Shown here: positions 39,289 to 54,773 of the stretch, piece by piece
Numbering within the stretch: position 1 is the stretch's first letter
How the letters are laid out: every line of letters starts with the position of its first letter
DNA from: a virus
Length of the DNA stretch: 64,000 bases
Strand: one strand, 5' to 3'
IMG/VR virus record: IMGVR_UViG_3300021403_000005
Translations under genes and position numbers: made by a program
Notes under the pieces: generated by a model
Told to the model about the DNA's origin: nothing
What the model saw: only the letters and a program-made list of their open reading frames with translations
Databases searched by the model: none

Positions 39289-39295
39289 TTATTCC

Positions 39296-40924
39296 TCAGA
39301 AGGGATAGAGGGCGGCTGTTGCCGATGGAGAACTATAAGCTAGTTCGTCCGCAGAAGCCATTGACTGTTCCTCACGGCGCAAAGCAAAACCCGACTCTCG
39401 CAAGTAACGAAGCGCTTGCGATGTGGAATCCACCAAGTCGTCCCGCGCACCTTTCGGGAAAAGCGCACACTGATCTATGACCATATCGGCCCAACTCTTG
39501 TCCGGGGCGTAGATCATCTCATCGGCAAAGAGATGCTGGATGGCGTGGACCCTGGCCACCTTGTCGCCGTACTTGGTGGGGTCCAGAAGTTCCACCCCCA
39601 GCTTGCCAGTGCCACGTAGCAATCGGTGAAGTTCATGCCCAATCGAGAGGCCGCTGGCCTTTGATTCCACCAAGAGCCTATCGACCGGGAATCTGGCCTC
39701 AACCGTGGTCACCGTACTGATCGTGCATGTCTGTATAACCTTTTGAACTAACTCGTAAAATTGCAACCGTTCCTGCCAAGCATAGATCAGCATAACCTTG
39801 GGATTCCCGGCCACATCGCGAAACACCCCCCAGATGGTCAGGGCTGAGGCGTCGTTTTCCTGCTTGATGGTGTAGGCGGTATCCAGGGAGGCGAGGATGT
39901 ACTCGAATCCAGGGTACTTCCCCTTTTCCCACATCTGCCAGAAATGGCGCTTAATAATTGAGCCACCACGCGGTTCCGGGGTCTGCTGGTACTGTCCGGC
40001 CCAGGCGTGAGGCCCTTTGTCGCGCTCCAGGCCCTTGCAGATTTCCTGGGTGAATCGCTCGGGCCAAGCTAGCTCGTAATCCGTAATTCGAGGGTCCTCC
40101 CAGAATACATCCTTGTCTTGCACATCTTTCACATCATCCCCAACAAATGTCTTAATACTACCATCAGGCGCATAGGCATTAACATACACCTTGGGAATGT
40201 ACTCCATGGGAATCCAGAGGTGGGTGTAGCCCATCTCCCGGCTGAGTGCGATTCCGCTAACATCGTCCTCGTGGGTGCGCTGCTGGATGACAGCGATGAT
40301 GCTCTCTTGGGGATTGTTCAGGCGGTCGGGCATGATTTCTGTAAACCACATCTTGGTGGTTTCTCGAACTAGCTCCGATTCCACATCAAATGGGTTATTC
40401 GGGTCGTCAATGATGATAATGTCGGCCCGTTCCCCCGTACCGATGCCGCCGACCGAGGTAGCCAGCTTCCAGCCGGTCTTGTCGTTAGCGAACTTGATCT
40501 TGGTGAATTGCTCATTGGAAATACCAAAGCGGTTGCCCCACATGCGCCTGTAGCGCTCGCTCACCACGATATTGCGGCAACGCATATTATCGCGTTCCGT
40601 CAAATGGTTAGAGTAGGCGGCGCACATGAATCGCGTCCACGGCTTGTTCTGCGGCCCCCATATCCAGGCAGGCCAGAACACGTCAGTCAGCAGCGACTTG
40701 GTAAAACCCGGCGGCACATTAATAAGGAGGCGCTTGATGTGCCCCTCGGACGCTGCCTGAAGGTGATCGGCAATGGCTTCAATGGCCCAGCCCCGAATAA
40801 ATGGGATCGCTGGCTCAACCACCGGCCACACGTACTCGGCAAAGTCGATGAGGCTACCTTCATACTTGCGATTGACCAGAAGCTTGTCGATTTGCCGGTA
40901 GGCGGTCTTGACCAGTTCGCTCAT
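39296..40924 (-). CDS. terL: Terminase large subunit
   Basis: LLINVPPGFTKS (Walker A region), IIIIDD (Walker B), YILASLDTA, VESKASG, GARDDLVDSTSQAL (RNase H-like nuclease). Confidence 0.95.
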   Translation of the reverse strand: MSELVKTAYRQIDKLLVNRKYEGSLIDFAEYVWPVVEPAIPFIRGWAIEAIADHLQAASEGHIKRLLINVPPGFTKSLLTDVFWPAWIWGPQNKPWTRFMCAAYSNHLTERDNMRCRNIVVSERYRRMWGNRFGISNEQFTKIKFANDKTGWKLATSVGGIGTGERADIIIIDDPNNPFDVESELVRETTKMWFTEIMPDRLNNPQESIIAVIQQRTHEDDVSGIALSREMGYTHLWIPMEYIPKVYVNAYAPDGSIKTFVGDDVKDVQDKDVFWEDPRITDYELAWPERFTQEICKGLERDKGPHAWAGQYQQTPEPRGGSIIKRHFWQMWEKGKYPGFEYILASLDTAYTIKQENDASALTIWGVFRDVAGNPKVMLIYAWQERLQFYELVQKVIQTCTISTVTTVEARFPVDRLLVESKASGLSIGHELHRLLRGTGKLGVELLDPTKYGDKVARVHAIQHLFADEMIYAPDKSWADMVIDQCALFPKGARDDLVDSTSQALRYLRESGFALRREEQSMASADELAYSSPSATAALYPF

Positions 40925-40994
40925 TAAAAATCCAGCGGTGGAAAACTCGACAACAATGATTGTCGCTTTCCGGGGCAGCTTATACCGAATCACA

Positions 40995-41351
40995 ATGGAA
41001 GAGAATGCTAAGACCTCACACACCGTCATCTACAATCGGCTTTGGAATATCCAACCGGGCGAACAGATTATCTATTTCGTGGGATTCTTGGATGCCGAAC
41101 GCGATCCGCAACCTTCAGAGAGTCCGCTCAATAAGATCGCCAATCTCGCCTACCAGCTTATGCTGGAAGGTCGCGTGAGGCTTACGCAGCGACGCATCAT
41201 GGCGCCAGTCGTTCATGGCGGCATGGTCGATTGGCATCGTGGGGTCGGACAGGGCTTTGAATATATCGCTACGGGGACCACACCCAGGAAAGAAGCGATG
41301 AAAGTACCCGAAAGAACTCTCTACAACCCCCTCAGCAAGGTACTCAAATGA
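40995..41351 (+). CDS. Phage hypothetical protein, first gene of the plus-strand block
   Basis: PGEQIIYFVGFL...ANLAYQL..EGRVRLTQRR...FEYIA; ATGA coupling to the next gene. Confidence 0.6.
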   Translation: MEENAKTSHTVIYNRLWNIQPGEQIIYFVGFLDAERDPQPSESPLNKIANLAYQLMLEGRVRLTQRRIMAPVVHGGMVDWHRGVGQGFEYIATGTTPRKEAMKVPERTLYNPLSKVLK

Positions 41352-41569
41352 ACCGAAGCGATCTCGATGATTTGGAAGAGAAGATCATGGACGAATTCGC
41401 CAAGCGGCGCGCTCTCGGTGGATTCGATGCTAATGCCGCTACTATTCTGCTCTTGATTCGATGGGTTTACGAACTCACACGACACCTTAAGGATAAAGAG
41501 CCAAAATCCAAGGAAGCCGAAGTCGATCTTGCGGGAGCCAGAGTCGAACTACGCCCGAAGAAAAAATGA
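41348..41569 (+). CDS. Small hypothetical protein
   Basis: ATGA overlaps at both ends. Confidence 0.6.
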   Translation: MNRSDLDDLEEKIMDEFAKRRALGGFDANAATILLLIRWVYELTRHLKDKEPKSKEAEVDLAGARVELRPKKK

Positions 41570-42084
41570 CCCCTCCGTTAAGTACGTTCAATCTGGTCTT
41601 GATGCCATATCAGCAGCGCCTCCTGCGTCAGCAACACGTTGATTGGCTCAATGATAAAGAACTCATGAAGTATTCCGAGCAGCGCCATCGTAAGCATACG
41701 ATGGAGACGCAGCGCGAATACCTTTGGACCTTTCCTAAGACCTCGCACATCTGGCTCATTGAATTTGGCCCACCGCCAGTCCCGGAACTGCGAGCCATCG
41801 GCACCATCACAGCCTACATAGACCAGCCCAACAAAGTTGCCAATATGGGCATCTTGCTTGGGGAAGAGAAGGGCTATGGCCATGGTTTGGCAGCATGGTC
41901 AGCGGTGATGGAGTTTCTATTCGCAGATGGAATCCGCAAGGTTGAGGCTGGATGTATGGCCGTTAATGAGCCGATGCGGTTGCTTGCCACCAAAGCCAAG
42001 ATGAATGTCGAAGGGGTTATTCCTGAGCATTATCTATTCGAAGGTAAGCCCTGCGATCTCATTAACTATGGGAAAACCAAGTGA
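41566..42084 (+). CDS. RimJ/RimL-type GNAT N-acetyltransferase (PseH-like role)
   Basis: HVDWLND.E.MKYSEQRH, IGTITA, MGILLGE.KGYG.G..AW, RKVEAG.MA.NEPM. Confidence 0.8.
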   Translation: MTPPLSTFNLVLMPYQQRLLRQQHVDWLNDKELMKYSEQRHRKHTMETQREYLWTFPKTSHIWLIEFGPPPVPELRAIGTITAYIDQPNKVANMGILLGEEKGYGHGLAAWSAVMEFLFADGIRKVEAGCMAVNEPMRLLATKAKMNVEGVIPEHYLFEGKPCDLINYGKTK

Positions 42085-42653
42085 AGGTTCTGCTGCTTTC
42101 GCCCTACCCAGAGCGCCTTGCAGATATTTTGCGAGATGATGATGTTGTTCCTCTCGTCTCCAAAATTCACTGGCCAAACGTCGATTTCGTTATCTCCTAT
42201 GGACACCGCGAGATCATAAGAGAGCCGTACTTATCCGAATACAAAGGACGGATAATAAACATCCACCTCAGCCTATTACCATGGAATCGCGGCGCCGATC
42301 CGAATTTCTGGGCGTGGTTTGATAATACTCCACATGGCGTCTCCATCCATCACATAGATGATGGTATAGATTCTGGACCGATCATCTTTAACGGCACAGT
42401 TGATATGACCCTCGATCCAATCGGAACACTGGAGTCATCATACGGCATCTTGCAGAACCACGCCGTATATCTCTTTGGTATTCTCTGGGAAAACTTTAAG
42501 TACAAAGGTAAGCTGCCCCGAGGCCGCCCTAATGAGGGGGGCACCTACCATAGGTCCAAAGACAAAGAGCAATGGATGGCGCGATTCCCGCTCGGCTGGA
42601 AAACTCCTGTCGCAGATGTAATGGCACTCGGAAGAAAAGCCAATGGCCGCTAG
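42081..42653 (+). CDS. Sugar N-formyltransferase (Formyl_trans_N only)
   Basis: VISYGHREII, IINIHLSLLPWNRGADPNFW, GVSIHHIDDGIDSGPII; 190 aa with no tRNA-binding C-terminal domain. Confidence 0.85.
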   Translation: MKVLLLSPYPERLADILRDDDVVPLVSKIHWPNVDFVISYGHREIIREPYLSEYKGRIINIHLSLLPWNRGADPNFWAWFDNTPHGVSIHHIDDGIDSGPIIFNGTVDMTLDPIGTLESSYGILQNHAVYLFGILWENFKYKGKLPRGRPNEGGTYHRSKDKEQWMARFPLGWKTPVADVMALGRKANGR

Positions 42654-43329
42654 CCAAACCGAGAGATTCCTGCATGGCGCTGGCGATGATTACTACATGC
42701 GCAATCGCAATGATTTCGGCCAAAAGGAAAAGGACCCGGTTCTCTCGATACTAAAAGCCACCGAAATTAAGCCTACATCCATACTGGAAATAGGCTGCGC
42801 TAATGGCTGGCGCCTCATGAAGCTCAAGGGACTCTACAACTGTCATGTACGAGGCATTGATCCCTCGACTATGGCTATCCAAGAAGGATCGAAGGATTTA
42901 GGTGGCGATCTACAGGTGGGGGTCGCCCAACACATACCATTTGATGCCAACAGCTTCGATCTGGTGATATTCGGCTACTTTATGTTTCTCTGTGAACCAA
43001 ATTCTTGGTTCCAGATCATGGCTGAGGCCAATCGTGTTCTAGCAGATAAAGGGCACATCGCCCATTACGATTACATCAGCGCCCGACCTTTGGTTTGGGA
43101 ATACGCCCCAGCCAAAGCGTCCATTCGCGAAAAGGAATGCCGAGCCTGGGTCTATGACCACGCCAAAATGTGGCTCAGTCACCCCGGCTACTTTGCCGTC
43201 GCAGAAGGCACCGGACCTTGTGAATTAGGTAAAACCGTTGCCTGCCAAGTTATGGTCACATTGTTACAGAAAGACATGACTCGTTCGTTTCATAAACCAG
43301 ACGGCACGATACCTGAGTTTACACAATGA
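42643..43329 (+). CDS. Class I SAM methyltransferase (nonulosonate-cluster type)
   Basis: F..GAGDDYY.RN, ILEIGCANGWRL, GIDPS, FDLVIFG. Confidence 0.85.
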   Translation: MAASQTERFLHGAGDDYYMRNRNDFGQKEKDPVLSILKATEIKPTSILEIGCANGWRLMKLKGLYNCHVRGIDPSTMAIQEGSKDLGGDLQVGVAQHIPFDANSFDLVIFGYFMFLCEPNSWFQIMAEANRVLADKGHIAHYDYISARPLVWEYAPAKASIREKECRAWVYDHAKMWLSHPGYFAVAEGTGPCELGKTVACQVMVTLLQKDMTRSFHKPDGTIPEFTQ

Positions 43330-44279
43330 CCAAGACATTCGGGATTCTCGGCCACGGTTCTATTGGAAAGCGCCATGCACAGAATCTCGTGCGGCTTGGT
43401 CACAAGGTCCTAACCTTTGATCCAAGCAATCCTATCCCCAAGTCGGCGCCACCATTCATAGCAATGCACGATGAACAAGACTTAATTAACAATGCCGATG
43501 CTATTCTCATATGCAGCCCCACGGCACTGCATTATGAGCATCTCGTTAAAGGCCTCTTTGCCAGGAAACCGATCTTCGTTGAAAAGCCCATAGGAGATAC
43601 CGAGAAGTGTCACTTCTTGGGATCGGTCATGGGACGCGATCCATTTATGGTTGGCTACAATCTGCGCTTCCATTCCTGCGTTAAGAAAGCCAAGGAGTGG
43701 CTCGACAACGGTATTCTTGGCCAGATTCAATGGGCGAGCTTCGTGGTGGGGCAGAAGAACGACAAGCTCGACTACCTCCGCGACGGTGTAATCCTCAACT
43801 GGTCGCATGAGATTGATCTGGCGCTGTACCTACTGGGTCCAGCGAAGGTGTTACAGGCTTCCGCTCGTGTCACAGGTTCCGGTGAGGATATAGCCGACAT
43901 TTGGCTACAACATGACAGCGGCGCTCGATCATCCATCCACTTGGACTATGTAACCAAGCCTGAGATTCGTGAGGCTTGGATTGTCGGCGCCAATAACAGG
44001 ATTGGTATGGACCTTGTTGGGCGCAATGCCTCGCTAGGTGAATACGTCCATCGCGGAGACGACAGCTTCGATCAGAACTATGTAGAGGAAATACGGGCTT
44101 TTATTGACCGCATAGATGGCAAGGAGACAATCGGATGCAACGCAAAAGAAGGGTTGGCCGCCCTAGAAATATGCCTCCAAGCGCGCCGCCTAGCCGGACT
44201 ATCGAGCGAGACGTTCGCCCACTCGATTCCTTGGACGCCGCCTTCGGAATCTACACCGACCCCGAAATCCAACTCCTGA
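43326..44279 (+). CDS. Gfo/Idh/MocA NAD-dependent oxidoreductase
   Basis: GILGHGSIGKRH, ICSPTALH, IFVEKP, VGYNLRFH, SHEIDLALYLLG. Confidence 0.9.
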   Translation: MTKTFGILGHGSIGKRHAQNLVRLGHKVLTFDPSNPIPKSAPPFIAMHDEQDLINNADAILICSPTALHYEHLVKGLFARKPIFVEKPIGDTEKCHFLGSVMGRDPFMVGYNLRFHSCVKKAKEWLDNGILGQIQWASFVVGQKNDKLDYLRDGVILNWSHEIDLALYLLGPAKVLQASARVTGSGEDIADIWLQHDSGARSSIHLDYVTKPEIREAWIVGANNRIGMDLVGRNASLGEYVHRGDDSFDQNYVEEIRAFIDRIDGKETIGCNAKEGLAALEICLQARRLAGLSSETFAHSIPWTPPSESTPTPKSNS

Positions 44280-44430
44280 TTAAGTCACACGCCAAGAATA
44301 TCATTGGCTTCAGCTATGGCGGTCCTACAGGAGAGATGACGATAGAAACACACAATGCGATTCTACGCGAGGCTAATCGCATCCTCTTCCTGTGCAAGAG
44401 TATGCAGCTAACTACCAAACGAACACGGTC

Positions 44431-44595
44431 ATGAAAGCCTCTAAATACTCCGTCCAATATACCGATCACGGTACAAAGCAGGAACACTGCTCGATCTGCA
44501 AACATTACGTCTCGCCTGTGATCTGCGCTGTGGTTGAGGGCCGCATCAAGGCTGGCGGCTGGTGCAAGAAATTCGAGAGGAAAAACGAAGAATGA
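44431..44595 (+). CDS. HiPIP-like [4Fe-4S] protein lacking a Tat signal
   Basis: KASKYSVQY...HCSICKHY...CAVVEGRI..GGWCKKF; four Cys in HiPIP spacing; ATGA overlaps at both ends. Confidence 0.7.
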   Translation: MKASKYSVQYTDHGTKQEHCSICKHYVSPVICAVVEGRIKAGGWCKKFERKNEE

Positions 44596-46631
44596 AGGTC
44601 TTAGCGATTGCGCAGGCTCGGATGGGTTCAACGCGCGTGCCCGGCAAGGTTATGCGGAGGATGGGAGAGTATAACCTTCCAGTCTTACATTGGGTGTACG
44701 ACGCCCTTATCCAAGCTGAAGGCATCGACCAAGCCGTTATAGCTACCTCTACTTTGTCAGAGGATAATATTATTGCGGGGTACTGTAGAGATACCGCGAT
44801 TCCATTCTTTCGTGGCAGTGCGCTGGATGTGCTGGACCGATTCTATCAATGTGCGCTTCGTTATGATGCTGATATAGTCTTGAGATTAACCTGCGACTGC
44901 CCATTCCTTGACCCTCAAGTTATTGGCGAAGTCATCAAGCTTAGGAACATAACCAATGCCGATTACACCTCAAACATTGATCCCCCAAGCTACCCCGATG
45001 GACTCGATGTTGAATGCTTCACCTTCAAGGCTTTGGAAGCCGCTTGGGAAGAAGCGACTCGACCAACAGACCGAGATTGCGTTACTCAGTTTATCGTTCG
45101 TAATCGCCATCGCTTTAGCGCTGCTAATCTACGGTGTCCTCTGCCTGGGCTAGATAAGGAGCGCTGGGTTCTCGATACCGAAGCTGACTGGAACTTCTGC
45201 AAAGCAGTAGCGGAGCATATCCGCTGTGGTGGTCAACCCTATCTTAAAATACTCAACATCCTCGATGAACATCCCGAGATTCGTAAACTCAACCCAGGAA
45301 TCCGCAATGAGCGATTCTTTGAAGCAATCAACACAGAGCGATTACCCCCACGAACATTTGAGCGGACTGCGGGAGTATTCAAGCGAGCCATCAAGACTAT
45401 ACCATTTGGGGCGCAGACATTCTCGAAGTCTCACCTTCAGTTTCCGCGCGATCATAGTCCTCTTTATTGCAGCCATGCTGATGGGGCTAGGCTCTTTGAT
45501 GTTGACGGAAACGATTACGTTGACTTGGTTAACGCTGTGCTGCCTGTTGTACTTGGCTACCGTGATCCTGATGTGGATGACGCAATTCGACTGCAACTGG
45601 ACCGAGGAATTTCCTTCAGTCTCGCGACTGAGCTTGAAGCGGAGCTATCGGAAACCCTCTGCCGACTTATACCGTGCGCACAAGCGGTCAAACTCGGCAA
45701 ATCAGGAACGGACGTTACCACTGCTGCCATTCGTCTAGCGCGAGCCTATACAGGCAAGAGCCACGTTCTGTTGTCCGGCTATCATGGCTGGGCAGATTGG
45801 TCTATGGCGGCGAGTCAGCGCGACGCTGGGATTCCGTTGGCCACCAAGCTTCTATCACACAAATTCGAGTACGGTAACTACAACGACGAAGAACTGAATC
45901 GCTGGATTGGCGATGCCGCTGCGATCATTGTCGAACCGGACAGCAATCCAGAATACCTAAAGTTCCTGCGTGAAGCCTGCGACGAACACAATGTCGTTCT
46001 GATCTTCGATGAAATCATTACCGGCTTCCGTTATCACATCGGTGGCGCCCAAGCGTACTGGAACGTAACACCAGATTTAGCCACCTTCGGCAAGGCGATG
46101 GCTAATGGGATGCCGATTTCGGCCCTCGTCGGCAAGCGTGACATAATGGCTCGCATGTCACCACCGAACAACATCTTCTATTCCGGCACGATGTTCGGTG
46201 AAACCCTCTCTATTTCTGCCGCAATAGCTACAATCAAGAAAATGGAAAAAGAGGATGTTATTGGCTACCTCTATCACGTTGGGGCAGAGATTCATTCTGA
46301 AGTTGCCCCAAGCATTGCTTTCCATGGCCTTCAAGACGTTATCAAACTAGACGGCCACTGGACACGCAAAATCATCAATATCCACGACCACAGGAACGCC
46401 ACTAAGGAAGAAATCAAGGCTCTGTTCATGCAGGAGATGATCCAGGGGGGCGTGCTAGTCATTGCCTCGCACAATGTCTCCTACGCTATTAAACAGAACG
46501 AGGTTAAGCGCATCCTCACTGCTTACAATCGAGCTTTGACCACGATCAATCAGGCTTTGGAGAACAACAACATCTCCGACTACATAGATGCTCCGCTCAT
46601 CGGTGTGGCGCCGCTGCGGACCACAGCATGA
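44592..46631 (+). CDS. SpsF/PseF-like cytidylyltransferase fused to a class III (GSA-aminomutase-like) PLP aminotransferase
   Basis: N-terminal QARMGSTRVPGKV, FRGS.LDVLDRFY, RLTCDCPFLDP, LDTEADW; C-terminal DVDGNDYVD, LIFDEIITGFR, ATFGKAMANG.PISA. Confidence 0.9.
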   Translation: MKVLAIAQARMGSTRVPGKVMRRMGEYNLPVLHWVYDALIQAEGIDQAVIATSTLSEDNIIAGYCRDTAIPFFRGSALDVLDRFYQCALRYDADIVLRLTCDCPFLDPQVIGEVIKLRNITNADYTSNIDPPSYPDGLDVECFTFKALEAAWEEATRPTDRDCVTQFIVRNRHRFSAANLRCPLPGLDKERWVLDTEADWNFCKAVAEHIRCGGQPYLKILNILDEHPEIRKLNPGIRNERFFEAINTERLPPRTFERTAGVFKRAIKTIPFGAQTFSKSHLQFPRDHSPLYCSHADGARLFDVDGNDYVDLVNAVLPVVLGYRDPDVDDAIRLQLDRGISFSLATELEAELSETLCRLIPCAQAVKLGKSGTDVTTAAIRLARAYTGKSHVLLSGYHGWADWSMAASQRDAGIPLATKLLSHKFEYGNYNDEELNRWIGDAAAIIVEPDSNPEYLKFLREACDEHNVVLIFDEIITGFRYHIGGAQAYWNVTPDLATFGKAMANGMPISALVGKRDIMARMSPPNNIFYSGTMFGETLSISAAIATIKKMEKEDVIGYLYHVGAEIHSEVAPSIAFHGLQDVIKLDGHWTRKIINIHDHRNATKEEIKALFMQEMIQGGVLVIASHNVSYAIKQNEVKRILTAYNRALTTINQALENNNISDYIDAPLIGVAPLRTTA

Positions 46632-47569
46632 AGAAAGTCTTAATTTCGGGTGGCACAGGTTCGTTTGGCAATGCGTTCGCACGACGCATTATAGCCCATA
46701 ACCCTGAGCGCGTGGTGATCTATTCGCGCGATGAGCAGAAGCAGGAAGAAATGGCACGGCGATTCCCGCAGCGATTCTTTCGATTCTTCCTAGGAGATGT
46801 GCGCGACCAGGACCGCCTCGAATACGCTATGCACGACATTGATACGGTTATCCATGCAGCAGCACTAAAGATTGTGCCTGCTTTGGAGTATAACCCCACC
46901 GAATGTGTTGCGACCAATATCGGTGGTGCCCAGAATGTCGTTAGAGCCGCCATCAACAGCGGAGTTAAACGAGTCATCGCCCTGTCCACGGATAAGGCGG
47001 TCCACCCGATCAACCTTTACGGGGCATCGAAGCTGGCGGCGGAGAAAATCTTCATTGCCGCCAATGCTCTCGCTGCGGGCGCAACTGCTTTCAGCGTTGT
47101 ACGTTACGGTAATGTCGTGGGTAGCCGTGGGAGCGTTGTTCCTTATTTTAAGTCTCTTGCCGCCGCCGGGAAGCCACTGACAGTTACCGATACGCGCATG
47201 ACGCGGTTCTGGATCACGCTGGATCAAGCGGTCGATCTGGTCCGGCTTGCTCACACCAAGATGACCGGGCGAGAGATTTACATCCCGAAGATTCCGTCCG
47301 TAAAGATCATGGACTTGGCGCTGGCCATATCTCCGGCATGGGAAGTCACCGGCATCAGGCCAGGAGAGAAGCTGCATGAGTGTCTCCTGACCAGGGATGA
47401 GGCGCGCGATACGCTCGATATGGGCGATTACTACATTATCACCCATCCTGGATGGCAAGGTCAGATCGGCTCTGGAATCCCAGTCACGCCTGACTTTACC
47501 TACACCTCTGACACCAATCATCAATGGCTCAGTATAGAACAACTCAAGGAATCGCTCAATGAAGCCTGA
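46628..47569 (+). CDS. pseB: UDP-GlcNAc 4,6-dehydratase (inverting), PseB
   Basis: GGTGSFG, YSRDEQKQ, GDVRD, HAAALKIVP..EYNP.E, LSTDKAVHPINLYGASK, VRYGNVVGSRGSVVP, TRFWITL, GIRPGEKLHE. Confidence 0.92.
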   Translation: MKKVLISGGTGSFGNAFARRIIAHNPERVVIYSRDEQKQEEMARRFPQRFFRFFLGDVRDQDRLEYAMHDIDTVIHAAALKIVPALEYNPTECVATNIGGAQNVVRAAINSGVKRVIALSTDKAVHPINLYGASKLAAEKIFIAANALAAGATAFSVVRYGNVVGSRGSVVPYFKSLAAAGKPLTVTDTRMTRFWITLDQAVDLVRLAHTKMTGREIYIPKIPSVKIMDLALAISPAWEVTGIRPGEKLHECLLTRDEARDTLDMGDYYIITHPGWQGQIGSGIPVTPDFTYTSDTNHQWLSIEQLKESLNEA

Positions 47570-47738
47570 GAACATCATAAACGAAATCACTCAGGTTCGA
47601 TCACGCAATAATTTTCTCTGGATGAGTCTCCTTACATTAGCCATGAAGGCCAAGCCTAAAGAAGCCAAGAAAATCTTACAGGCTATCAACGAAAACGATA
47701 AGGAGATTTCCGGGTGGCTAGAAAAGCTCCAACACTAA
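47559..47738 (+). CDS. Unlisted 59-aa helical protein between pseB and pseC
   Basis: Hand translation: MKPENIINEITQVRSRNNFLWMSLLTLAMKAKPKEAKKILQAINENDKEISGWLEKLQH; AAGGA RBS; overlaps both neighbours. Confidence 0.65.
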   Translation: MKPENIINEITQVRSRNNFLWMSLLTLAMKAKPKEAKKILQAINENDKEISGWLEKLQH

Positions 47739-48829
47739 AGCGGCTACCTAAATTCTTCACGGTAGGATCACAGGAGAGAAGGAATGTGCAACGCGCGCTT
47801 GGGCGGCAGCTATCTGGCTATGTTGGCGGTATCCATAATGCTGGTTACTGGGTTGACCGCCTCTCCGTCGAGTGGACCAACACGTTTCGATGCCGATACG
47901 CTATACCCTGCAATTCAGCTACCTCGGGTTTGTTGGCTTGTTGCATGGCAGCTTCTATTGGCCCCGGAGATGAAGTTTGGGCATCCTCGTACACTATGTC
48001 CGCGTCTGGGGCCTGTGCCAAAGTATTGGGTGCCAGTGTTAAATTCATCGACATAGACTTGGTACGCTATTCTCTCAATAGCCCTACCTCTTGGACAACA
48101 AAGCCAAAAGCGATCATCGTTACCAACCTATTCGGGCACCCCGCCTACTTAGCGCAGATACGCAGAACATGCGACGATAATGGCATCGTCATGATCGAGG
48201 ATAACGCTCAATCACCCTTCGCAATGGAGAACGGTAAATATGCAGGGACCATCGGACACTACGGCGTCTTTAGCTTCAACGTCCACAAGCACATCCAATC
48301 TGGAGAGGGAGGAGTGGTTACGACAAACGATGCAGAAAGTGCTGAGAGAGTTAGAAACGCAGTTAATCATGGAGAACTGGCTGCCAAAAACCCCTCCATC
48401 GGACTCAACCTGCGAATGACGGAGCCAATAGCTGCGATTGCCTCGGCGCAGCTACATAGGGCGCACGACATTATCGAGAATCGGCGCCATCTGGCAGATG
48501 AACTTACCGACGCTGCGAATCAATCGGCCTACCTGATTCCTCCGGTGGAATCGAAGGGCTGCAAGCATGTCTATTACATTTGGGCGTGCAGGGTATTGGA
48601 TGGCAAGCGGGAAGCGTTCGTGACCTTTCTCAACAAGCACTGCTTTCCGGTACGTGCTGGCTATTCCATACCTTTGCATAGGTTATTCAAAACCAACGAT
48701 CAGTGTCCACTGACCGAACGCATGGAGGACAGGGAACTGGTCAGCTTCGAGATTTGCATGTGGCGCCCGAATACCAGCGAAGTATCCAAGATGAAGCGCA
48801 TCATCAAGATAGCAGGAGAAAGCCTATGA
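47714..48829 (+). CDS. pseC: DegT/DnrJ/EryC1/StrS sugar aminotransferase (PseC role)
   Basis: CNSATSGL, IEDNAQSP, FSFNVHKHIQSGEGGVV (PLP Lys), GLNLRMTEPIAA, HVYY. Confidence 0.85.
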   Translation: MARKAPTLKRLPKFFTVGSQERRNVQRALGRQLSGYVGGIHNAGYWVDRLSVEWTNTFRCRYAIPCNSATSGLLACCMAASIGPGDEVWASSYTMSASGACAKVLGASVKFIDIDLVRYSLNSPTSWTTKPKAIIVTNLFGHPAYLAQIRRTCDDNGIVMIEDNAQSPFAMENGKYAGTIGHYGVFSFNVHKHIQSGEGGVVTTNDAESAERVRNAVNHGELAAKNPSIGLNLRMTEPIAAIASAQLHRAHDIIENRRHLADELTDAANQSAYLIPPVESKGCKHVYYIWACRVLDGKREAFVTFLNKHCFPVRAGYSIPLHRLFKTNDQCPLTERMEDRELVSFEICMWRPNTSEVSKMKRIIKIAGESL

Positions 48830-49215
48830 GTGCCATTAAGCAAAGATTCGTAACCTCAGCCCTTCCCGGCTTCTGCGTTGCAGAATTTATCCCCGGAGAC
48901 GCTGAAAGAGGGCCAGAAATATTCCTAGAACCTATTGTTACATGGGTAACGGAAATCGAAGAAACTGAAAAGTATGCCACAAGTAAAGATTATTTCCTGA
49001 TGGCAACTTATCCGGTCTGCTACGGGATGCTCACTGATAGCACGGTATCTTATGTAATATATAGCCCAGATGGCAAATACTGCTTTTCTGGGGATTGTAC
49101 TGTTAATTCTAAAGAAGAAGCCATCCTAGTCTTTATAGAGAGAGAAAAGATAAAACAGGAAATACAGCAACGGCTGCGAGATAAGCAATTGTTGAAAGGA
49201 TATAAGAAATCATGA
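48826..49215 (+). CDS. AT-rich hypothetical protein
   Basis: AGGAG RBS and ATGA overlap with the pseC stop. Confidence 0.6.
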   Translation: MSAIKQRFVTSALPGFCVAEFIPGDAERGPEIFLEPIVTWVTEIEETEKYATSKDYFLMATYPVCYGMLTDSTVSYVIYSPDGKYCFSGDCTVNSKEEAILVFIEREKIKQEIQQRLRDKQLLKGYKKS

Positions 49216-49544
49216 AAATCGCAATAAAAAAACGCAACCAAAGGATCAAGCCCGCACAAAAGAAGGCAAGCGACGACAAGGTTGCCAAGTACATTGTTAA
49301 GCTTCTAAGTAGAATCGAAAGTCTTGAAAAGGAATTAGGGCAATGCAAAGAGCAGCTTAATCAAAACTGGTATCACCGAGAGAAAAGAGAACAGCGGTTA
49401 GCAAAACTTTTGACTCCAGACCAAAAAGAAGCTGCCAGAATATCTGGCATTTCTCAGTATGAATATGCCGTGCGGTTTATGGAAATTCAATACGCCAAGA
49501 CTGCCACCAATATATTAACGGGTAATCTTGATGATGATCGCTAA
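49212..49544 (+). CDS. Coiled-coil hypothetical protein
   Basis: ATGA overlap; LTPDQKEAARISGISQYEYA resembles the C-terminus of the scaffold protein. Confidence 0.6.
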   Translation: MKIAIKKRNQRIKPAQKKASDDKVAKYIVKLLSRIESLEKELGQCKEQLNQNWYHREKREQRLAKLLTPDQKEAARISGISQYEYAVRFMEIQYAKTATNILTGNLDDDR

Positions 49545-50535
49545 GACCGAGATCGCTCAGTGTGCCTTCCCTTATATTGTTTGTGAAATATCAGGCAATC
49601 ACGGTGGTAGCCTAGAACGCGCCAAACAGCTTATCAAAGAAGCCAAGAAAGCTGGAGCGGCTGCGGTCAAGACGCAATGCTACAACGCTGATACATTGAC
49701 GTTGAACTGCAACAAGCTGGACTTCATCGTACAGGGCGGTCTATGGCAGGGCAAGACGCTATACGAACTTTATCAATCCGCTTGTACTCCACCGGAATGG
49801 CACAAGGAGCTATACAGTGTCGCCCATGACGAAGGCATTACGATCTTTTCTTCGGTGTTCGACCGCAGTGGGATCGACCTACTCCAATCTCTCGGCTGTC
49901 CGGCATATAAGATTGCGAGCTTTGAAGTGGCCGACCTACATCTTATCGAGTACGCAGCTAAGACAGATAAACCAATCATCATCTCGACGGGCCTCGCCAA
50001 CAACCAAGAAATAAGAGAAGCGCGCGAGGCGGCTGGTCCCAACTCCGCGTTCCTGCATTGCACCAGCGAGTATCCAGCCGATACCGACAATGCCGATATG
50101 TGGCGCGTCCATAGGATATACGAACTGCTCCACAAAGAGTGCCCTGTAGGGCTGTCCGATCATAGCAGCGGGCATCTGTTGCCGATCATGGCGACCGCGA
50201 TGGGGGCGGCGATCATTGAGAAGCACCTCAAACTGCGATTGGCGCCCCCAAGCGAGGACGATGCGTTTAGCCTGACACCGGCCGAGTTTGCGGGCATGGT
50301 CACGGCCGTCAAGCAAGCCTGGAGCGCGGGGCTGGAGCATGAGCAGCCTGCGAATCCATCACGGCAATTCCGCAGAAGCCTTTATGTTATCGAGGACATA
50401 CGAGAAGGCGAGCAGTTCACCGAACTGAACATACGCTCGATCCGGCCGGGCTTTGGAATGCCGCCGAAGAACTATTCCAAGATGCTGGGGAAAAGAGCCA
50501 AAAAAGATTATAAGCGCGGCGACCCCTTATGGTAG
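49531..50535 (+). CDS. pseI: NeuB-family nonulosonate synthase with SAF domain, PseI
   Basis: EISGNHGGS, VKTQCY..DT, LYELY, IFSSVFD, YKIASFE, IIISTG, LHCTSEYP, VGLSDHS, IIEKH, FRRSLY, RSIRPGFG. Confidence 0.9.
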   Translation: MMIAKTEIAQCAFPYIVCEISGNHGGSLERAKQLIKEAKKAGAAAVKTQCYNADTLTLNCNKLDFIVQGGLWQGKTLYELYQSACTPPEWHKELYSVAHDEGITIFSSVFDRSGIDLLQSLGCPAYKIASFEVADLHLIEYAAKTDKPIIISTGLANNQEIREAREAAGPNSAFLHCTSEYPADTDNADMWRVHRIYELLHKECPVGLSDHSSGHLLPIMATAMGAAIIEKHLKLRLAPPSEDDAFSLTPAEFAGMVTAVKQAWSAGLEHEQPANPSRQFRRSLYVIEDIREGEQFTELNIRSIRPGFGMPPKNYSKMLGKRAKKDYKRGDPLW

Positions 50536-50542
50536 GGAAGCA

Positions 50543-50638
50543 CGTGGGCGAGTGAAACGGATACCCGGTCAGTGACCGGGGGATCATTTCAGTCTCATAA
50601 ACTGAAGATAGTGGGTTCGACTCCCATGCCCGCAACCA
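50543..50638 (+). tRNA. tRNA with CAT anticodon (Met or Ile2), encoded CCA, and a 17-nt hairpin inserted in the D-loop
   Basis: Acceptor CGTGGGC/GCCCGCA, discriminator A, CCA; D-stem GTGA/TCAT; anticodon arm TCAGT-CTCATAA-ACTGA; T-arm GTGGG-TTCGACT-CCCAT; 96 nt total. Confidence 0.8.
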
Positions 50639-50656
50639 ACCATCAGGAGCTACAGC

Positions 50657-50923
50657 ATGAGTTACCAAGGCCAGACAGCAGAGAGAAATCCTACGCCTGC
50701 CAGCCTTACAGAAGGCGGTGTGAACATGAACTCTCGCCTTCGCGAGATTCGTGATCGCATTAGCAAGATTGCCGATAACATCCACGGAATGAGCCTCAAA
50801 GCTGCCGGTGAGGGAAAAGCAGAAGCGCCACCGACAAATAGCTTACGTCGCAATCTCGATGTAGGATTCAACTACATCGACCAGATTGAAGCTGAACTCC
50901 ATCGGCTTGAACTCAACCTCTAA
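50657..50923 (+). CDS. Small hypothetical protein
   Basis: AGGAG RBS before ATG 50657 (an alternative start at 50726 is possible). Confidence 0.5.
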   Translation: MSYQGQTAERNPTPASLTEGGVNMNSRLREIRDRISKIADNIHGMSLKAAGEGKAEAPPTNSLRRNLDVGFNYIDQIEAELHRLELNL

Positions 50924-50941
50924 AAGCGATACAATCTTTCT

Positions 50942-51062
50942 GCCTGAGGGGTCCGCCATCCCAAGCCCCGAGGGTTTTTCTCCGTGTTGTACTGACCCCC
51001 GCCGAATCTTAAGGCCGTTTCTCCCGGCCTGCCCTCCCCCGGCGGGGGTCGCCTTTTCAGGC
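50942..51062 (+). other. GC-rich nested stem-loop (terminator or structured RNA) ending the sugar operon
   Basis: gcctga/tcaggc encloses gacccccgccg/cggcgggggtc (11 bp), which encloses aggccg/cggcct. Confidence 0.5.
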
Positions 51063-51131
51063 TTGACTTCCCCACATAGCAATAATAGATAATTCCTACT
51101 TGGGAATACACCCAATACAAAGGAATATCTT

Positions 51132-51908
51132 ATGGCTAAGGCCAAAAACGGACGAACACTGGTTACCTTCCTTCTGGATCGCACTGGTTCAATGGAATCG
51201 GTCAAGAAGGCTACGATTGAAGGTTTCAACGGCTATGTTGAAACGCTTCAGAAAGAGAAAGCAGCCGATATCGAGTTCACGCTCATTACCTTCGACACCC
51301 AGAGCATGGACAAGATTTGCGTCTGCAAGCCAATCAAAGGCGCTCCGAAGCTGGACGAGAAGAACTATCAGCCTCGTTCAGGCACCAACTTGATCGACTG
51401 TGCCTACGACACCATCAAGGCGGTTGAAGGCCAGGAGAAGGCCAAGGGCGCCAAGATTGTGATCTGCTTCCAGACCGATGGTGAGGAGAATTCCTCGCAC
51501 AAGCATACATCTGAGGAGCTTAAGACCCTGATCGAGGAAAAGACCAAGCTGGGTTGGCAGTTCAACTTCATGGGCTGCGGAATCGACGCCTATGCTCAAT
51601 CGGCTCGGATGGGAATGACCTACGCCCAGACCACATCCTATAGCCCGGATGCAGCATCGACAGATGCTTCCTTCCGTGCCAACGCCATGAATACCTCTCT
51701 TTATGCCGCAGGAGCCAGAGACAATACCTCCTATACCAACGTGCAAAGAGCGGCTTCTGGTGATAAGTTCTATCATTACCAGAATGGTCTTGTTGGCAAT
51801 TTTGGCCTTACCGGGACTCCCGTTAAAGGTCCAATTCCAACACAGGGGCCGCTAGACCTAAATGACGCCAGCAAGCCAAAAGATTCGTCTCTCGACCTCA
51901 ATGGCTAA
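51132..51908 (+). CDS. vWA-domain protein
   Basis: MIDAS residues LLDRTGSM, T.LIDC, QTDGEENSS; WQFNFMG. Confidence 0.88.
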   Translation: MAKAKNGRTLVTFLLDRTGSMESVKKATIEGFNGYVETLQKEKAADIEFTLITFDTQSMDKICVCKPIKGAPKLDEKNYQPRSGTNLIDCAYDTIKAVEGQEKAKGAKIVICFQTDGEENSSHKHTSEELKTLIEEKTKLGWQFNFMGCGIDAYAQSARMGMTYAQTTSYSPDAASTDASFRANAMNTSLYAAGARDNTSYTNVQRAASGDKFYHYQNGLVGNFGLTGTPVKGPIPTQGPLDLNDASKPKDSSLDLNG

Positions 51909-52152
51909 CCGTGCCTACAATACCAACTTCGGGACCTCGGTGAGCAACGCGCTTGCCGAGGCCCGGCTTACCCAATCCGAGGTAGCAACCAGTGCCAGAA
52001 TCTCGCAACCGTACTTCAATCAAATGCTTACAGGACTTAAAAAGCCATCTCCCGAGTGGGTGGACATTATCGCCTCAACGCTCAACTTTTCCAAGGAAAA
52101 GCGCCGAGAACTCCATGTCGCGGCGGCCAAGGATTATGGATTCAAGCTATGA
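51901..52152 (+). CDS. XRE-family HTH regulator
   Basis: LTQSEVATSARISQPYFNQMLTGLKKPS. Confidence 0.85.
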   Translation: MANRAYNTNFGTSVSNALAEARLTQSEVATSARISQPYFNQMLTGLKKPSPEWVDIIASTLNFSKEKRRELHVAAAKDYGFKL

Positions 52153-52448
52153 CTAAACGCATTATGTTTATCCTATTGATTGTTATCTTGTCTTATACGA
52201 TTGGGCCAATTCTGATTGGCCTTATAGGTGCAATAATTGCTACAATAGGTTCGTGTCAGGTGGATGAGGGTAGCGTTCACCCATGTATTCTGTTGGGTAT
52301 GAACTTAGGCGGTTTGCTATACAGGGTGGGATTAATGCCATGGCTGGCGCTCATAACGATTCCTACCGGCGAAATAGCACTCGGGGTATGGGGCATCATG
52401 GCTAGCCTTATTTGGATTGTAACATGGAAGAAAAAGCAAACAAACTAG
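52149..52448 (+). CDS. AT-rich membrane protein with a periplasmic Cys pair
   Basis: TM - GSCQVDEGSVHPC - TM; ATGA overlap. Confidence 0.65.
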   Translation: MTKRIMFILLIVILSYTIGPILIGLIGAIIATIGSCQVDEGSVHPCILLGMNLGGLLYRVGLMPWLALITIPTGEIALGVWGIMASLIWIVTWKKKQTN

Positions 52449-52882
52449 AACGCATCATCCGCCCGATTGTCGAAGGCCAGATTCGCGGGTTCCTCAAGGA
52501 ACATCCGGTGATCGTGAACGCAGTTGACTGGTATAAGCCGCGCCGGGACAAGGCGACGACCTTTACCAATTCACTAGCCAAACGTATTGTTCGGGACCTG
52601 ACGTGTGGAACGCAAGCTGCACGTCTGAGAGCGGCGCTCTTGGAATGTAGTGCTGAGGCGCCGTCTAAGTCGCCCCTGGAATTCCTGGCTGGCGGCGACG
52701 GGAGGCTTGGCACGTCACTTGAACCTCCTGGCGGGGTGTCTGGTAACGCGACTGGACACCCCACTAATCCAAGACTTGGCGGCTACACCGCTCAAGAATA
52801 CGCTGCGAAAGCTTTCCCAAAAGATCAATGGCCAAAGCTTTTTCAATCCGCTCACCCTCTACAGGCGATCACTGATGGGTAG
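52412..52882 (+). CDS. Hypothetical protein
   Basis: ORF track; LERIIRPIVEGQIRGFLKEHP...NSLAKRIVRDL. Confidence 0.55.
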   Translation: MDCNMEEKANKLERIIRPIVEGQIRGFLKEHPVIVNAVDWYKPRRDKATTFTNSLAKRIVRDLTCGTQAARLRAALLECSAEAPSKSPLEFLAGGDGRLGTSLEPPGGVSGNATGHPTNPRLGGYTAQEYAAKAFPKDQWPKLFQSAHPLQAITDG

Positions 52883-53036
52883 GCCAGCATTCTATTGTTG
52901 CAAAACTCTCCTGGGAGGCACCCCGGACGTGAATCGCCTCACGATCCTACAGACCTGTGGTTCGATACCCTGGACGAAGATTCCAGAACCCCGGTTGCAC
53001 TCCTCTGGTACAACGTAGCTAGGACACTGAGCTTCC

Positions 53037-53237
53037 TCAGACTCGATCTGAAGGAACTATCTCCTTGAGTCCGTGGAGGTTTTGTAGTATTTTGATCTCT
53101 GCTTGAAGCTCCTCAATTTCATCCACAGCAAGACGTAGCCAAAAGCAGGTAGGACACAAAAATCGCTCCGCACACCCCACCTGCCCACAAGGAACCCTCT
53201 CCCTCAACTTCTTCACTACATCCATGCCTACATTCAT
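53037..53237 (-). CDS. Small Cys-containing hypothetical protein
   Basis: CGQVGC...CPTC...AVDEIEELQ. Confidence 0.55.
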   Translation of the reverse strand: MNVGMDVVKKLRERVPCGQVGCAERFLCPTCFWLRLAVDEIEELQAEIKILQNLHGLKEIVPSDRV

Positions 53238-53240
53238 CTT

Positions 53241-53483
53241 TCACCCAATTTTCTTTGTAGATTTTTTAGCCCGGTAGGCTCTCATATAGACCCGCTGGTA
53301 AGCTGTCTTGTCAAAGGTCTTGAGAACCGGCTTAACGATGACAGGTCCCTCAGTGGCCTCCCTTACCCTATTGTCCACGATTCTGGCCTTTAGCTCCTCA
53401 CAGGCTTCTAGAACCAGGGGGTGTCTAGGAAACGTCCGAAGGAGCCTGTCTACAATCTGCATCGCTTCAGTGTTAGATTTCAT
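53241..53483 (-). CDS. Small basic hypothetical protein
   Basis: FDKTAYQRVYMRAYRAKK; TTGACA 31-36 nt upstream within an actctaac/gttagagt inverted-repeat region. Confidence 0.6.
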   Translation of the reverse strand: MKSNTEAMQIVDRLLRTFPRHPLVLEACEELKARIVDNRVREATEGPVIVKPVLKTFDKTAYQRVYMRAYRAKKSTKKIG

Positions 53484-53791
53484 ACTCTAACAGTTAGACT
53501 GCGTTAGAGTCCTTGTCAATCTGCTTTTCTATATTTTTTTGACCGTAAGCCTGGATACACAGGGTAAAAATCGTCAGCACCATCGCGCAAATCCGCTCCT
53601 ACGCGTCTAGTACGGCTCCCCTTTAGGGTACAAAGCATGAACGTTCTCGATCTGTACTCGATTCGTTCCTAGCTGCTTAGCTAGAATATAGCTCGGACTT
53701 GTCAATGACTTAGCTTAAGTAAGCTAACCAATGTGATGTTGAGCTTGGCAATGGTGGCTACTCAAGACTAGGGCGCGCAAGGACAAACAGC

Positions 53792-53953
53792 CTATTCTGA
53801 CTCTATCGAGTCAGCCGATATTAAACCCGATAATCCAAGAGCCAAGGCGTAAGCCTTGACCCAATCCTCGTCCAAGTAGGACGATTGATCCATAGATTCC
53901 AGCAGCTTGAATAAGCTGCGGTAGTCGATGTATTGCACCGGCTTATAATCCAT
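53792..53953 (-). CDS. Unlisted 53-aa hypothetical protein
   Basis: Hand translation: MDYKPVQYIDYRSLFKLLESMDQSSYLDEDWVKAYALALGLSGLISADSIESE; start overlaps the end of 53943..54128. Confidence 0.4.
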   Translation of the reverse strand: MDYKPVQYIDYRSLFKLLESMDQSSYLDEDWVKAYALALGLSGLISADSIESE

Positions 53954-54128: not shown

Positions 54129-54241
54129 GCGCGCGATCTCCTATCTTCCAACCCTCTTTCCCCTTGCCAGAACAAACCACGAAAACCGCTGCGGCACAAG
54201 GAAAACCTTAAGGAAAGGATCACTCTATCAATCTACGTCTA

Positions 54242-54293: not shown

Positions 54294-54324
54294 CAGACTT
54301 CGATGCCAACACCGGAGAAACCCA

Positions 54325-54759: not shown

Positions 54760-54773
54760 ATACCACACCGAAC

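Follow-up and report, generated by a model that had tools for sequence, protein, structure and literature searches.

Introduction

Does a nonulosonate operon of about 9 kb, lying between the large and small terminase genes of a tailed soil phage, represent DNA newly captured from a bacterium, or a pathway that has become part of the virus? The locus is found in IMG/VR virus record IMGVR_UViG_3300021403_000005, of which a stretch of 64,000 nucleotides (hereafter the window) was analyzed. Phage auxiliary metabolic genes are usually regarded as recent, host-derived, and transient, and the bacterial CMP-pseudaminic acid (CMP-Pse) pathway, as found in Campylobacter and Helicobacter, comprises PseB, PseC, PseH, PseG, PseI, and PseF.

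Enzymes acting on pseudaminic acid have been encountered in viruses before. The Acinetobacter baumannii prophage protein EpaA, in which a CTP_transf_3 domain is paired with an oxidoreductase, tailors Pse, and the EpaAB system consists of two tailoring genes in temperate prophages that depend on the host psaA-F genes, share 98-100% DNA identity between prophages, and were recently acquired (PMC12053666). A report on the Pacific Ocean Virome assigned pseI to the viral auxiliary metabolic genes (cited in PMC6359870); the gene described there likewise encodes a pseudaminic acid synthase in viral sequence, but as cited it is a single gene family in reads, presented without operon, phylogeny, genomic position, or transferase.

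The operon of the window resembles EpaA/EpaB in that Pse enzymes are carried by a phage and in that its cytidylyltransferase fusion and oxidoreductase parallel the CTP_transf_3-oxidoreductase pair, but it encodes a near-complete pathway that was already present in the ancestor of a deeply divergent phage clade. With high confidence, we interpret it as an old, selected, lineage-wide auxiliary module and not as a fresh capture.

Results and discussion

Organization of the locus

Pfam searches placed the sugar genes on the + strand at 41566-50535, as a sequence-only reading had proposed, and the same reading was borne out for the six interleaved small ORFs, the divergent orientation of the operon relative to terL (- strand), and its position between terL and terS (Table 1). 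Coupling is tight: ATGA overlaps occur at eight starts (41348, 41566, 43326, 44431, 44592, 46628, 48826, and 49212), a GTGA overlap at one (42081), and the other overlaps in the operon span 11-25 nt. The 542-aa terL gene of L160, a relative with 90% nucleotide identity, is 99% identical to terL of the window, and judging by its gene call the true terL start is probably 40924.

Table 1. Features of the window discussed in the text.
Feature	Coordinates	Strand	Evidence or remark
Sialyltransferase-fold (GT42-like) protein	26970-27902	-	among head genes; Foldseek
terL, large terminase	39296-41029	-	phrog_38, E 8.8e-82
Small phage ORF, 118 aa	40995-41351	+	+ strand block starts here
Small phage ORF, 73 aa	41348-41569	+	
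GNAT N-acetyltransferase	41566-42084	+	PF13302, E 8e-10
Formyltransferase-like enzyme, Formyl_trans_N	42081-42653	+	PF00551, E 5e-15
SAM-dependent methyltransferase	42643-43329	+	PF13649/PF08241
Gfo/Idh/MocA oxidoreductase	43326-44279	+	PF22725/PF01408
Cys-rich small ORF, 54 aa	44431-44595	+	ATGA-coupled to fusion gene
CTP_transf_3 + class-III aminotransferase (Aminotran_3) fusion, 679 aa	44592-46631	+	PF02348 + PF00202
PseB, UDP-GlcNAc 4,6-dehydratase (inverting), Polysacc_synt_2	46628-47569	+	TIGR03589
Small phage ORF, 59 aa, between PseB and PseC	47559-47738	+	
PseC-like DegT aminotransferase	47714-48829	+	PF01041, E 1e-51
701-bp insertion with ORFs 48826-49215 and 49212-49544	48830-49530	+	specific to window
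PseI, pseudaminic acid synthase, NeuB + SAF	49528-50535	+	TIGR03586
tRNA-like element, anticodon CAT, 17-nt D-loop hairpin	50543-50638	+	
terS, small terminase	56583-57164	-	phrog_51, E 1.1e-10

None of the six small ORFs matched a PHROG family. The 118-aa ORF, which had no match in family searches, is kept in L160, L161, and L162 with a dN/dS of 0.03, the 73-aa ORF occupies the same position in L001-L004, L078, L160, and L173 (dN/dS 0 at dS 0.30), and the Cys-rich ORF has a 55-aa counterpart at the same position in L160 and L161 (dN/dS 0.06). The 59-aa ORF is present in most relatives carrying the cassette and in none of the bacterial loci examined, and its closest Atlas clusters are viral. 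The two remaining ORFs belong to the 701-bp insertion, which holds the GC minimum and is missing in L160, where PseC and PseI overlap directly; neither has a homologue in any relative.

The same reading had seen no transposase or att-like repeat. Repeats flanking the block did not exceed short imperfect matches at chance level, and no integrase or transposase match was obtained among the neighbors scanned, which took in part of the small ORFs. Its proposal that the operon ends in a tRNA was not sustained, since neither ARAGORN nor Rfam at the gathering threshold calls a tRNA in the window. The element downstream of PseI is only tRNA-like: it scores 27.4 bits in the Rfam tRNA clan against a gathering score of 47, is called tRNA-Met by ARAGORN only if thresholds are relaxed or the hairpin is deleted in silico, and was not found in L160 or the other relatives.

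Enzymes and predicted product

Two enzymes exceed their NCBIfam equivalog cut-offs, namely PseB (TIGR03589, 433.2 bits against 407.75) and PseI (TIGR03586, 401.2 bits against 340.25). The PseC-like protein scores 142.7 bits with TIGR03588 (cut-off 423.5) in a near tie with LegC (139.6 bits, also below cut-off). The GNAT protein, of PseH-like size and present in all cassette relatives, does not match the NCBIfam PseH equivalog model and is regarded as a candidate for the PseH role. In the fusion protein, the cytidylyltransferase domain matches CTP_transf_3 with E 5e-21, the best NCBIfam matches are KdsB-type and below cut-off, and no PseF equivalog is among the matches listed; the fusion is 48-69% identical among phage relatives and about 44% identical to full-length bacterial homologues. 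Among the tailoring candidates, the formyltransferase is restricted to L160, L078, L170, and L173 among the relatives, the methyltransferase matches the Pse-associated methylase TIGR03587 weakly (23 bits, below cut-off), and the oxidoreductase is 87% identical in L160 and 36-52% identical in other cassette relatives. Pfam and NCBIfam revealed no PseG candidate among the operon genes, and the PseG model TIGR03590 gave matches in 7 of 14 control genomes but none in G001 and G002, two complete relatives.

From these assignments, UDP-GlcNAc would be converted to a pseudaminic-acid-type nonulosonate by PseB, the PseC-like aminotransferase, the GNAT protein, and PseI, and the cytidylyltransferase domain may then provide CMP activation. 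Tailoring could be carried out by the oxidoreductase, the class-III aminotransferase, the formyltransferase, and the methyltransferase, with the PseG hydrolase step presumably supplied by the host or by an unrecognized enzyme. The product is probably of the CMP-Pse type. Because PseG is missing, the PseH and PseF roles lack equivalog matches, and the PseC-like protein scores close to LegC, the pathway may depend on the host.

The operon shares with the bacterial CMP-Pse pathway the PseB and PseI equivalogs, a DegT aminotransferase, a GNAT protein, and a CTP_transf_3 domain, but lacks PseG, has a different gene order, and is interleaved with phage-only small ORFs. The closest arrangement is a bacterial cluster variant consisting of PseB, PseC, an aldo/keto reductase, a cytidylyltransferase/aminotransferase fusion, optionally GNAT, and PseI, whose aldo/keto reductase is replaced in the phage operon by the Gfo/Idh/MocA oxidoreductase. 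The same fusion (675 aa) occurs in clusters of alphaproteobacterial, Legionellales, and Francisellaceae MAGs.

Assembly integrity and distribution of the cassette

That all enzymes are of bacterial type, and that the fusion is known from bacterial Pse clusters, would fit recent uptake from a bacterial host or a chimeric assembly of phage and bacterial DNA. A chimera is contradicted by two run assemblies, in each of which a single contig (48 kb in one, 75 kb in the other) bridges both junctions and shows no differences over 38501-58400; since the record may itself derive from these samples, X1 and X2, the two contigs do not count as evidence independent of the window. Coverage in 30 of 30 bins was obtained with a soil RNA library belonging to a third study. 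Moreover, at least 14 independent contigs of metagenomic phages have this cassette in identical layout between terS and terL, and at least three of them are complete genomes with direct terminal repeats (G001, G002, and G005).

Across different metagenomes the order recurs as portal and terL on the leftward strand, then rightward GNAT-(MT)-(FMT)-GFO-55aa-fusion-PseB-59aa-PseC-PseI, and, farther on, leftward terS (contigs L003, L004, L001, L078, L160-L163, L165, L166, L168, L170-L173, and L175). The module belongs to a clade of tailed phages of roughly 65-77 kb with SU10-type portal and adaptor proteins. In cassette relatives the terS homologues lie 12-18 kb beyond terL, whereas in the operon-less L006, L007, L008, L012, and L076 terS is directly upstream of terL. 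PseI was absent throughout five operon-less relatives, four of which have a completeness of 90% or more. The description of the pathway as unusual for a phage holds for deposited genomes (three weak PseI matches in 50,697 records) but not for metagenomic phages, in which the cassette is common.

Phylogeny, selection, and composition

The TerL tree unites 14 operon phages in a single clade (SH-aLRT 97). Its sisters L006 and L012 have no operon, and the next sampled relatives with sufficient sequence upstream show terS beside terL without an operon. All 14 clade members with enough upstream sequence carry the operon, and its history on this tree takes two state changes in total, the second being L173, outside the clade. 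PseI and PseB each fall into virus-only clades, of 17 rows (SH-aLRT 98; to the exclusion of all 132 closest bacterial species representatives) and 19 rows (SH-aLRT 95), respectively; all trees were quick searches with SH-aLRT support only and midpoint rooting, and bacteria were sampled at one genome per species. Among about 185,000 species genomes no near-identical bacterial locus was found, PseI reaching at most 50% and PseB at most 58% identity; for the fusion, the best bacterial identity is 45%. Relative to L160, dN/dS of the enzymes is 0.02-0.17 (TerL, 0.018). The operon is not anomalous in tetranucleotide composition (z = -0.2 to -0.6 relative to the remaining window), and its GC content (0.50-0.51) compares with about 0.53 across the window. 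The low bacterial identity, the virus-only clades, and the ameliorated composition argue against fresh capture, which, together with a chimera, we regard as extremely improbable.

Inheritance has not been strictly vertical, as seen from the placement of L173, the disagreement of PseB with TerL, and the mosaic of dS along the operon (0.12 to 1.58 between genes). The block might accordingly be seen as chiefly a mobile cassette hopping between unrelated phages, with repeated transfer in place of ancestry. Consistent with this, L173 (and, judging by truncated TerL matches, also L172 and L175) carries it beside a distant terL of 30-47% identity, two PseB allele types are discordant with TerL, with no Mantel correlation between PseB and TerL divergence, and unrelated viral contigs encode PseI with the transferase family described below 2.7-5 kb away. 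Against it stand the presence of the cassette at the same site in every sampled member of the well-supported TerL clade, the co-divergence with TerL of PseI (Mantel r 0.50, p 0.006), PseC (0.40, p 0.03), and the fusion (0.38, p 0.047), and borders devoid of recombinase or repeats. We therefore consider predominant mobility improbable.

Lineage-wide inheritance, selection, and long reshuffling indicate that the operon is settled in the phage and was not recently taken from a host, and our confidence in its long residence and domestication is very high. The earlier view of a long-resident, selected pathway of about 9 kb is thereby supported by gene trees, bacterial identity, dN/dS, junctions, and composition. 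We propose that a + strand block with the cassette came to stand between terS and terL in the common ancestor of the clade (the two genes adjoin each other in the closest relatives lacking the operon) and was afterwards passed down with the phage backbone, ameliorating to phage composition under purifying selection. Remodeling within the phage gene pool would have included gain and loss of the accessory formyl- and methyltransferases, shuffling of the two PseB allele types, and addition of the phage-only small ORFs and the 701-bp two-gene insert, and at least one further phage lineage has apparently received the cassette as well. The nearly complete nonulosonate pathway of 9 kb resembles a core gene set of its lineage in its behavior, with a fixed site splitting terS and terL, virus-only clades, purifying selection, and remodeling inside the phage pool as its core-like traits, and it offers a dated, testable case in which a virus has made a biosynthetic pathway its own.

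Possible use of the sugar

A gene among the head genes may indicate the destination of the sugar. The structure model of its product (pLDDT 76), in which the C-terminus forms a long helix and the N-terminus is disordered, retrieved only CMP-sialic-acid transferases among the top 16 Foldseek matches (Cst-II, Cst-I, and the P. multocida sialyltransferase), with probability 1.00, E 1e-5 to 5e-4, and modest TM values of 0.35-0.49. Its sequence has no match in Pfam or PHROGs, and a PDB profile search gave nothing below E 0.1. A homologue is present in five of five operon phages and in none of five operon-less relatives. We consider the protein a candidate nonulosonate transferase on the basis of its predicted fold, and since its gene strictly co-occurs with the operon, glycosylation is the likely use of the sugar, possibly glycosylation of the virion.

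The transferase would move the sugar onto an acceptor, most plausibly a virion protein; virion glycosylation is a use to which we give slightly less than an even chance. Somewhat more tentatively still, a whole, deeply diverged lineage of soil and freshwater tailed phages may long have made a tailored pseudaminic-acid derivative (amino, formyl, or methyl) and decorated its own virions with it through a previously unclassified sialyltransferase-fold enzyme encoded in its head module. To our knowledge, heritable virion glycosylation of this kind has not been described for tailed phages.

A long-resident operon could instead serve to place the sugar on the host, with flagellin, LPS, or capsule of the infected cell remodeled by the phage, for instance as a barrier to superinfection or a means of altering receptors or motility. 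In favor of this, the operon is set apart from the structural genes and belongs to a + strand block of its own that also contains regulator-like genes (HTH at 51862-52152); the missing PseG would be in keeping with a host that has its own Pse synthesis; and the top bacterial PseI matches are from Caulobacteraceae. There are also precedents, as ocean-virome pseI has been read as a host-motility auxiliary gene in the account given in PMC6359870, and prophage EpaA/EpaB alter Pse of the host capsule (PMC12053666). However, the sole transferase candidate is encoded within the head module, a position it retains in each of the five complete operon phages, the genes scanned show no integrase or lysogeny module, and relatives have direct terminal repeats. 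We regard use on the host as rather unlikely and virion glycosylation as the preferred reading.

Maf flagellin nonulosonate transferases are related to GT42 sialyltransferases. The predicted fold of the head-module protein is closest to the CMP-sialic-acid transferases of GT42, such as Cst-I and Cst-II of C. jejuni, but it has no sequence-level match in Pfam, PHROGs, or PDB and is encoded among phage head genes, with putative donor and acceptor. Together, the operon and this gene make a sialic-acid-like coating of phage or host by tailed phages testable, and the divergent PseB, PseI, tailoring, and transferase enzymes constitute a resource for glycoengineering.

Phage genome and organization of the operon

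The phage is uncultured and has a genome of approximately 75 kb, of which the window forms a part: the window protein P0121 occurs on contigs as long as 75,130 nt, and in a soil-run assembly 38501-58400 is contained in a contig of 74,959 nt. Below about 41 kb, the minus strand carries the structural module. The pseudaminic-acid-type (Pse) operon lies on the plus strand, divergent from terL, in the order two small ORFs, GNAT, formyltransferase-like protein, methyltransferase, Gfo/Idh/MocA oxidoreductase, a 54-aa Cys-rich ORF, a 679-aa fusion of a CTP_transf_3 cytidylyltransferase and a class-III aminotransferase, PseB, a 59-aa ORF, DegT aminotransferase, two small ORFs, and PseI. Neighboring genes are joined by a 4-nt [A/G]TGA overlap at nine operon junctions and by overlaps of 11-25 nt at the remaining ones. 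With terS located, the block is seen to separate terS from terL, in agreement with the sequence-only reading, whose other observations on the operon were also borne out, with the exception of a terminal tRNA. A scan for sigma-70 promoters and terminators gave counts not above those in shuffled sequence, and it is therefore not used to define where the operon begins or ends.

Features of the window referred to in the text
Feature	Position (nt)	Strand	Match or remark
Esterase-like protein	21619-22338	-	tail-gene region
Candidate transferase	26970-27902		310 aa, head module
SU10-type portal	36781-39288	-	
SU10-type adaptors and tail-collar protein		-	structural module
terL	39296-41029	-	phrog_38, E 9e-82
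Small ORF	40995	+	
73-aa ORF	41348	+	
Pse operon	41566-50535	+	
54-aa ORF	44431-44595	+	Cys-rich
Fusion	44592-46631	+	679 aa
Insert	48830-49530		701 bp
tRNA-like element	50543-50638		anticodon CAT
258-aa protein	51132-51908	+	phrog_7371 (unknown function)
281-aa ORF	54268-55113	-	probably spurious
ORF within 281-aa ORF	54325-54759	+	
ORF within 281-aa ORF	54795-55094	+	
terS	56583-57164	-	phrog_51, E 1e-10

Recurrence of the layout in other phages

The operon is a real part of the phage genome, since its layout recurs in at least 14 contigs, in complete relatives, and in run assemblies bridging both junctions. The arrangement of portal, terL, divergent cassette, and terS 12-18 kb away is shared by 14 or more distinct contigs that derive from different metagenomes (IMG/VR, JGI, and one NCBI MAG); five relatives are rated 100% complete, three of them with direct terminal repeats. 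As regards the junctions, for which the sequence-only reading had proposed a coverage check against chimeric assembly, 38501-58400 was present in one contig, without difference, in each of two soil runs (Logan assemblies), which may be the source samples of the window. In a soil RNA-seq run from a separate study (X3), every bin of the same interval, operon included, was covered at ≥99% identity, which is suggestive of in situ activity; because of possible DNA carry-over into the library, this run cannot show transcription. A further run (X4) yielded only fragments of a variant at 95-99%, and bins without coverage there are uninformative. Among 50,697 deposited phage records, 41000-51000 had no megablast match, and PseI gave by tblastn only three weak matches (27-30% identity).

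Evolutionary history of the operon

In a TerL tree of 80 relatives, 14 operon-bearing phages formed one clade (SH-aLRT 97), within which TerL identity falls to about 60-70% and every member with enough upstream sequence carries the cassette. It is missing from contigs L006 and L012, the next branches whose upstream sequence is long enough. Operon-less relatives encode a TerS homolog directly upstream of terL, which was missed by tblastn and found by a profile made from TerS sequences of the clade, and a search for PseI in five operon-less genomes, four of them ≥90% complete, found none. In the simplest history, the cassette was inserted once between terS and terL, before the clade diversified, and was never lost afterwards. 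In contig L173 the cassette adjoins a distant terL of a second lineage, and therefore phage-to-phage transfer also occurred; contigs L172 and L175 probably belong to this second cassette-bearing lineage as well.

The gene trees that had been proposed to distinguish a phage-only clade from nesting among hosts gave virus-only groups for both proteins. PseI, analyzed as phage sequences together with the 132 closest from about 185,000 species genomes, formed a group of 17 (SH-aLRT 98) with a Rhodospirillales MAG as sister, and PseB a group of 19 (SH-aLRT 95). Among bacteria, the closest PseI (in Phenylobacterium and other Caulobacteraceae) reaches 50% identity, the closest PseB 58%, and the closest fusion 45%. 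In metagenomes, >120 PseI proteins share 54-97% identity with that of the window; two were examined, and each comes from a phage contig that has this layout too.

Purifying selection, the third check proposed from the sequence, was evident against the closest relative, L160 (~90% nucleotide identity): dN/dS was 0.02-0.17 for the enzymes and 0.018 for TerL, and three small ORFs are constrained too (0-0.06). By tetranucleotide usage, the operon does not stand out from the genome (z -0.2 to -0.6), and no flanking repeats were found around it. The lineage-wide position, virus-only clades, purifying selection, and typical composition together support the reading of the operon as domesticated in the phage, which we regard as very likely.

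Within the operon, dS against L160 ranged from 0.12 (formyltransferase) to 1.58 (methyltransferase), with terL, GNAT, formyltransferase, and PseB at 0.12-0.35 and methyltransferase, Gfo, and fusion at 0.64-1.58; the high-dS stretch corresponds to 42643-46631 of the window and 3607-7555 of L160. This range indicates that the operon is a mosaic, formed by recombination with other phages of the pool. For PseI, PseC, and the fusion, divergence between pairs of phages follows that of TerL (Mantel r 0.38-0.50, p 0.006-0.05). Two PseB allele types exist among cassette phages, one sharing about 60-65% identity with the PseB of the window and the other about 43-49%, and this split does not track TerL. 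The formyltransferase and methyltransferase are accessory among relatives.

Our search of the literature on pathways for pseudaminic or nonulosonic acid in phages yielded only two relevant sources: single pseI genes have been listed as viral AMGs (PMC6359870), and prophages are known to carry two Pse-tailoring genes (PMC12053666). The operon chemistry corresponds to the Pse pathway established in bacteria, in a cluster variant that is likewise known; what is added here is its evolutionary status as a lineage-wide module in a fixed position, with virus-only gene clades, purifying selection, and turnover within the phage pool.

Small ORFs, insert, and tRNA-like element

Two small ORFs are kept across phages: one of 59 aa, between PseB and PseC, and one of 55 aa (the 54-aa ORF in the window), ahead of the fusion. 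The insert between PseC and PseI, found in this phage only, has the lowest GC of the operon (0.47) and holds two ORFs of 129 and 110 aa with no family match; in L160, which is without it, PseC and PseI overlap by ATGA, and an additional 83-aa ORF lies ahead of PseB. The small ORFs had no match in PHROGs or Pfam, and tblastn of the 59-aa, 54-aa, and 73-aa ORFs gave none in the bacterial loci examined; an Atlas search with the 59-aa ORF yielded scores <0.9, a lead only.

The tRNA that had been read as the operon end was not confirmed, as ARAGORN and Rfam at the gathering threshold find none in the window. The element at this site has a tRNA-like fold with an encoded CCA end, a C1:A72 mismatch, and a perfect 17-nt hairpin in the D-loop; its only Rfam match is sub-threshold, to the tRNA clan (27 bits), and ARAGORN recognizes it as tRNA-Met only under relaxed thresholds or with the hairpin deleted in silico. 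It is absent from L160 and all other relatives examined, and is not a conserved operon end.

Enzymes and proposed use of the sugar

PseB and PseI exceed the NCBIfam equivalog cut-offs, the DegT aminotransferase is PseC/LegC-like with a score below cut-off, and no operon protein matched the PseG, PseH, or PseF equivalogs. PseG is absent from the operon and from two complete relatives. A small ORF as its replacement was rejected, since at 54-129 aa none of these ORFs is large enough and the pair separating PseC from PseI lacks conservation. The bacterial counterpart cluster has the order PseB-PseC-aldo/keto reductase-fusion-(unknown+GNAT)-PseI. In the alphaproteobacterial MAG L090 (12106-16414), PseB, PseC, aldo/keto reductase, and fusion are followed by a 461-aa protein and PseI; this protein combines a C-terminal GNAT with a 320-aa N-terminus without assignment, which could be a diverged PseG lacking in the phage version.

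The operon enzymes would produce a CMP-activated pseudaminic-acid-type sugar, which the oxidoreductase, aminotransferase domain, formyltransferase, and methyltransferase may tailor; oxidation and then transamination would, we infer, introduce an extra amino group. For the pairing of CTP_transf_3 with an oxidoreductase, prophage EpaA/EpaB offer a precedent; these enzymes turn Pse into its 8-epimer (PMC12053666).

How the sugar is used is inferred. The head-module protein of 310 aa has no sequence match in Pfam, PHROG, or PDB; the top 16 structural matches of its AlphaFold model (pLDDT 76) are the CMP-sialic-acid transferases Cst-II, Cst-I, and P. multocida sialyltransferase. Homologs occur in all five complete operon phages (59-63% identity) and in none of five operon-less relatives, and in unrelated viral contigs they lie 2.7-5 kb from PseI. 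The fold match, co-occurrence with the operon, and proximity to PseI make this protein a candidate transferase linked to the operon. Its position among head genes favors a virion acceptor, a host acceptor being a possible alternative; Pfam recognized no glycosyltransferase in 20 large structural ORFs.

Other genes of the window

Downstream of the operon, the gene of the 258-aa protein begins directly behind a pair of terminator-like hairpins and a promoter-like site, elements whose scan counts did not exceed those of shuffled sequence; the protein is also present in L160, and in L173 it lies inside the cassette region. The 281-aa minus-strand ORF, which is Arg/Cys/Ser-rich, had no PHROGs or Pfam match, and is antisense to two plus-strand ORFs, is probably spurious, since the first of these enclosed ORFs is conserved in many relatives. 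The second matches L173 only. In the tail-gene region, a GDSL/SGNH-like esterase (Pfam 24.6 bits, below cut-off) may be a candidate receptor-polysaccharide deacetylase.
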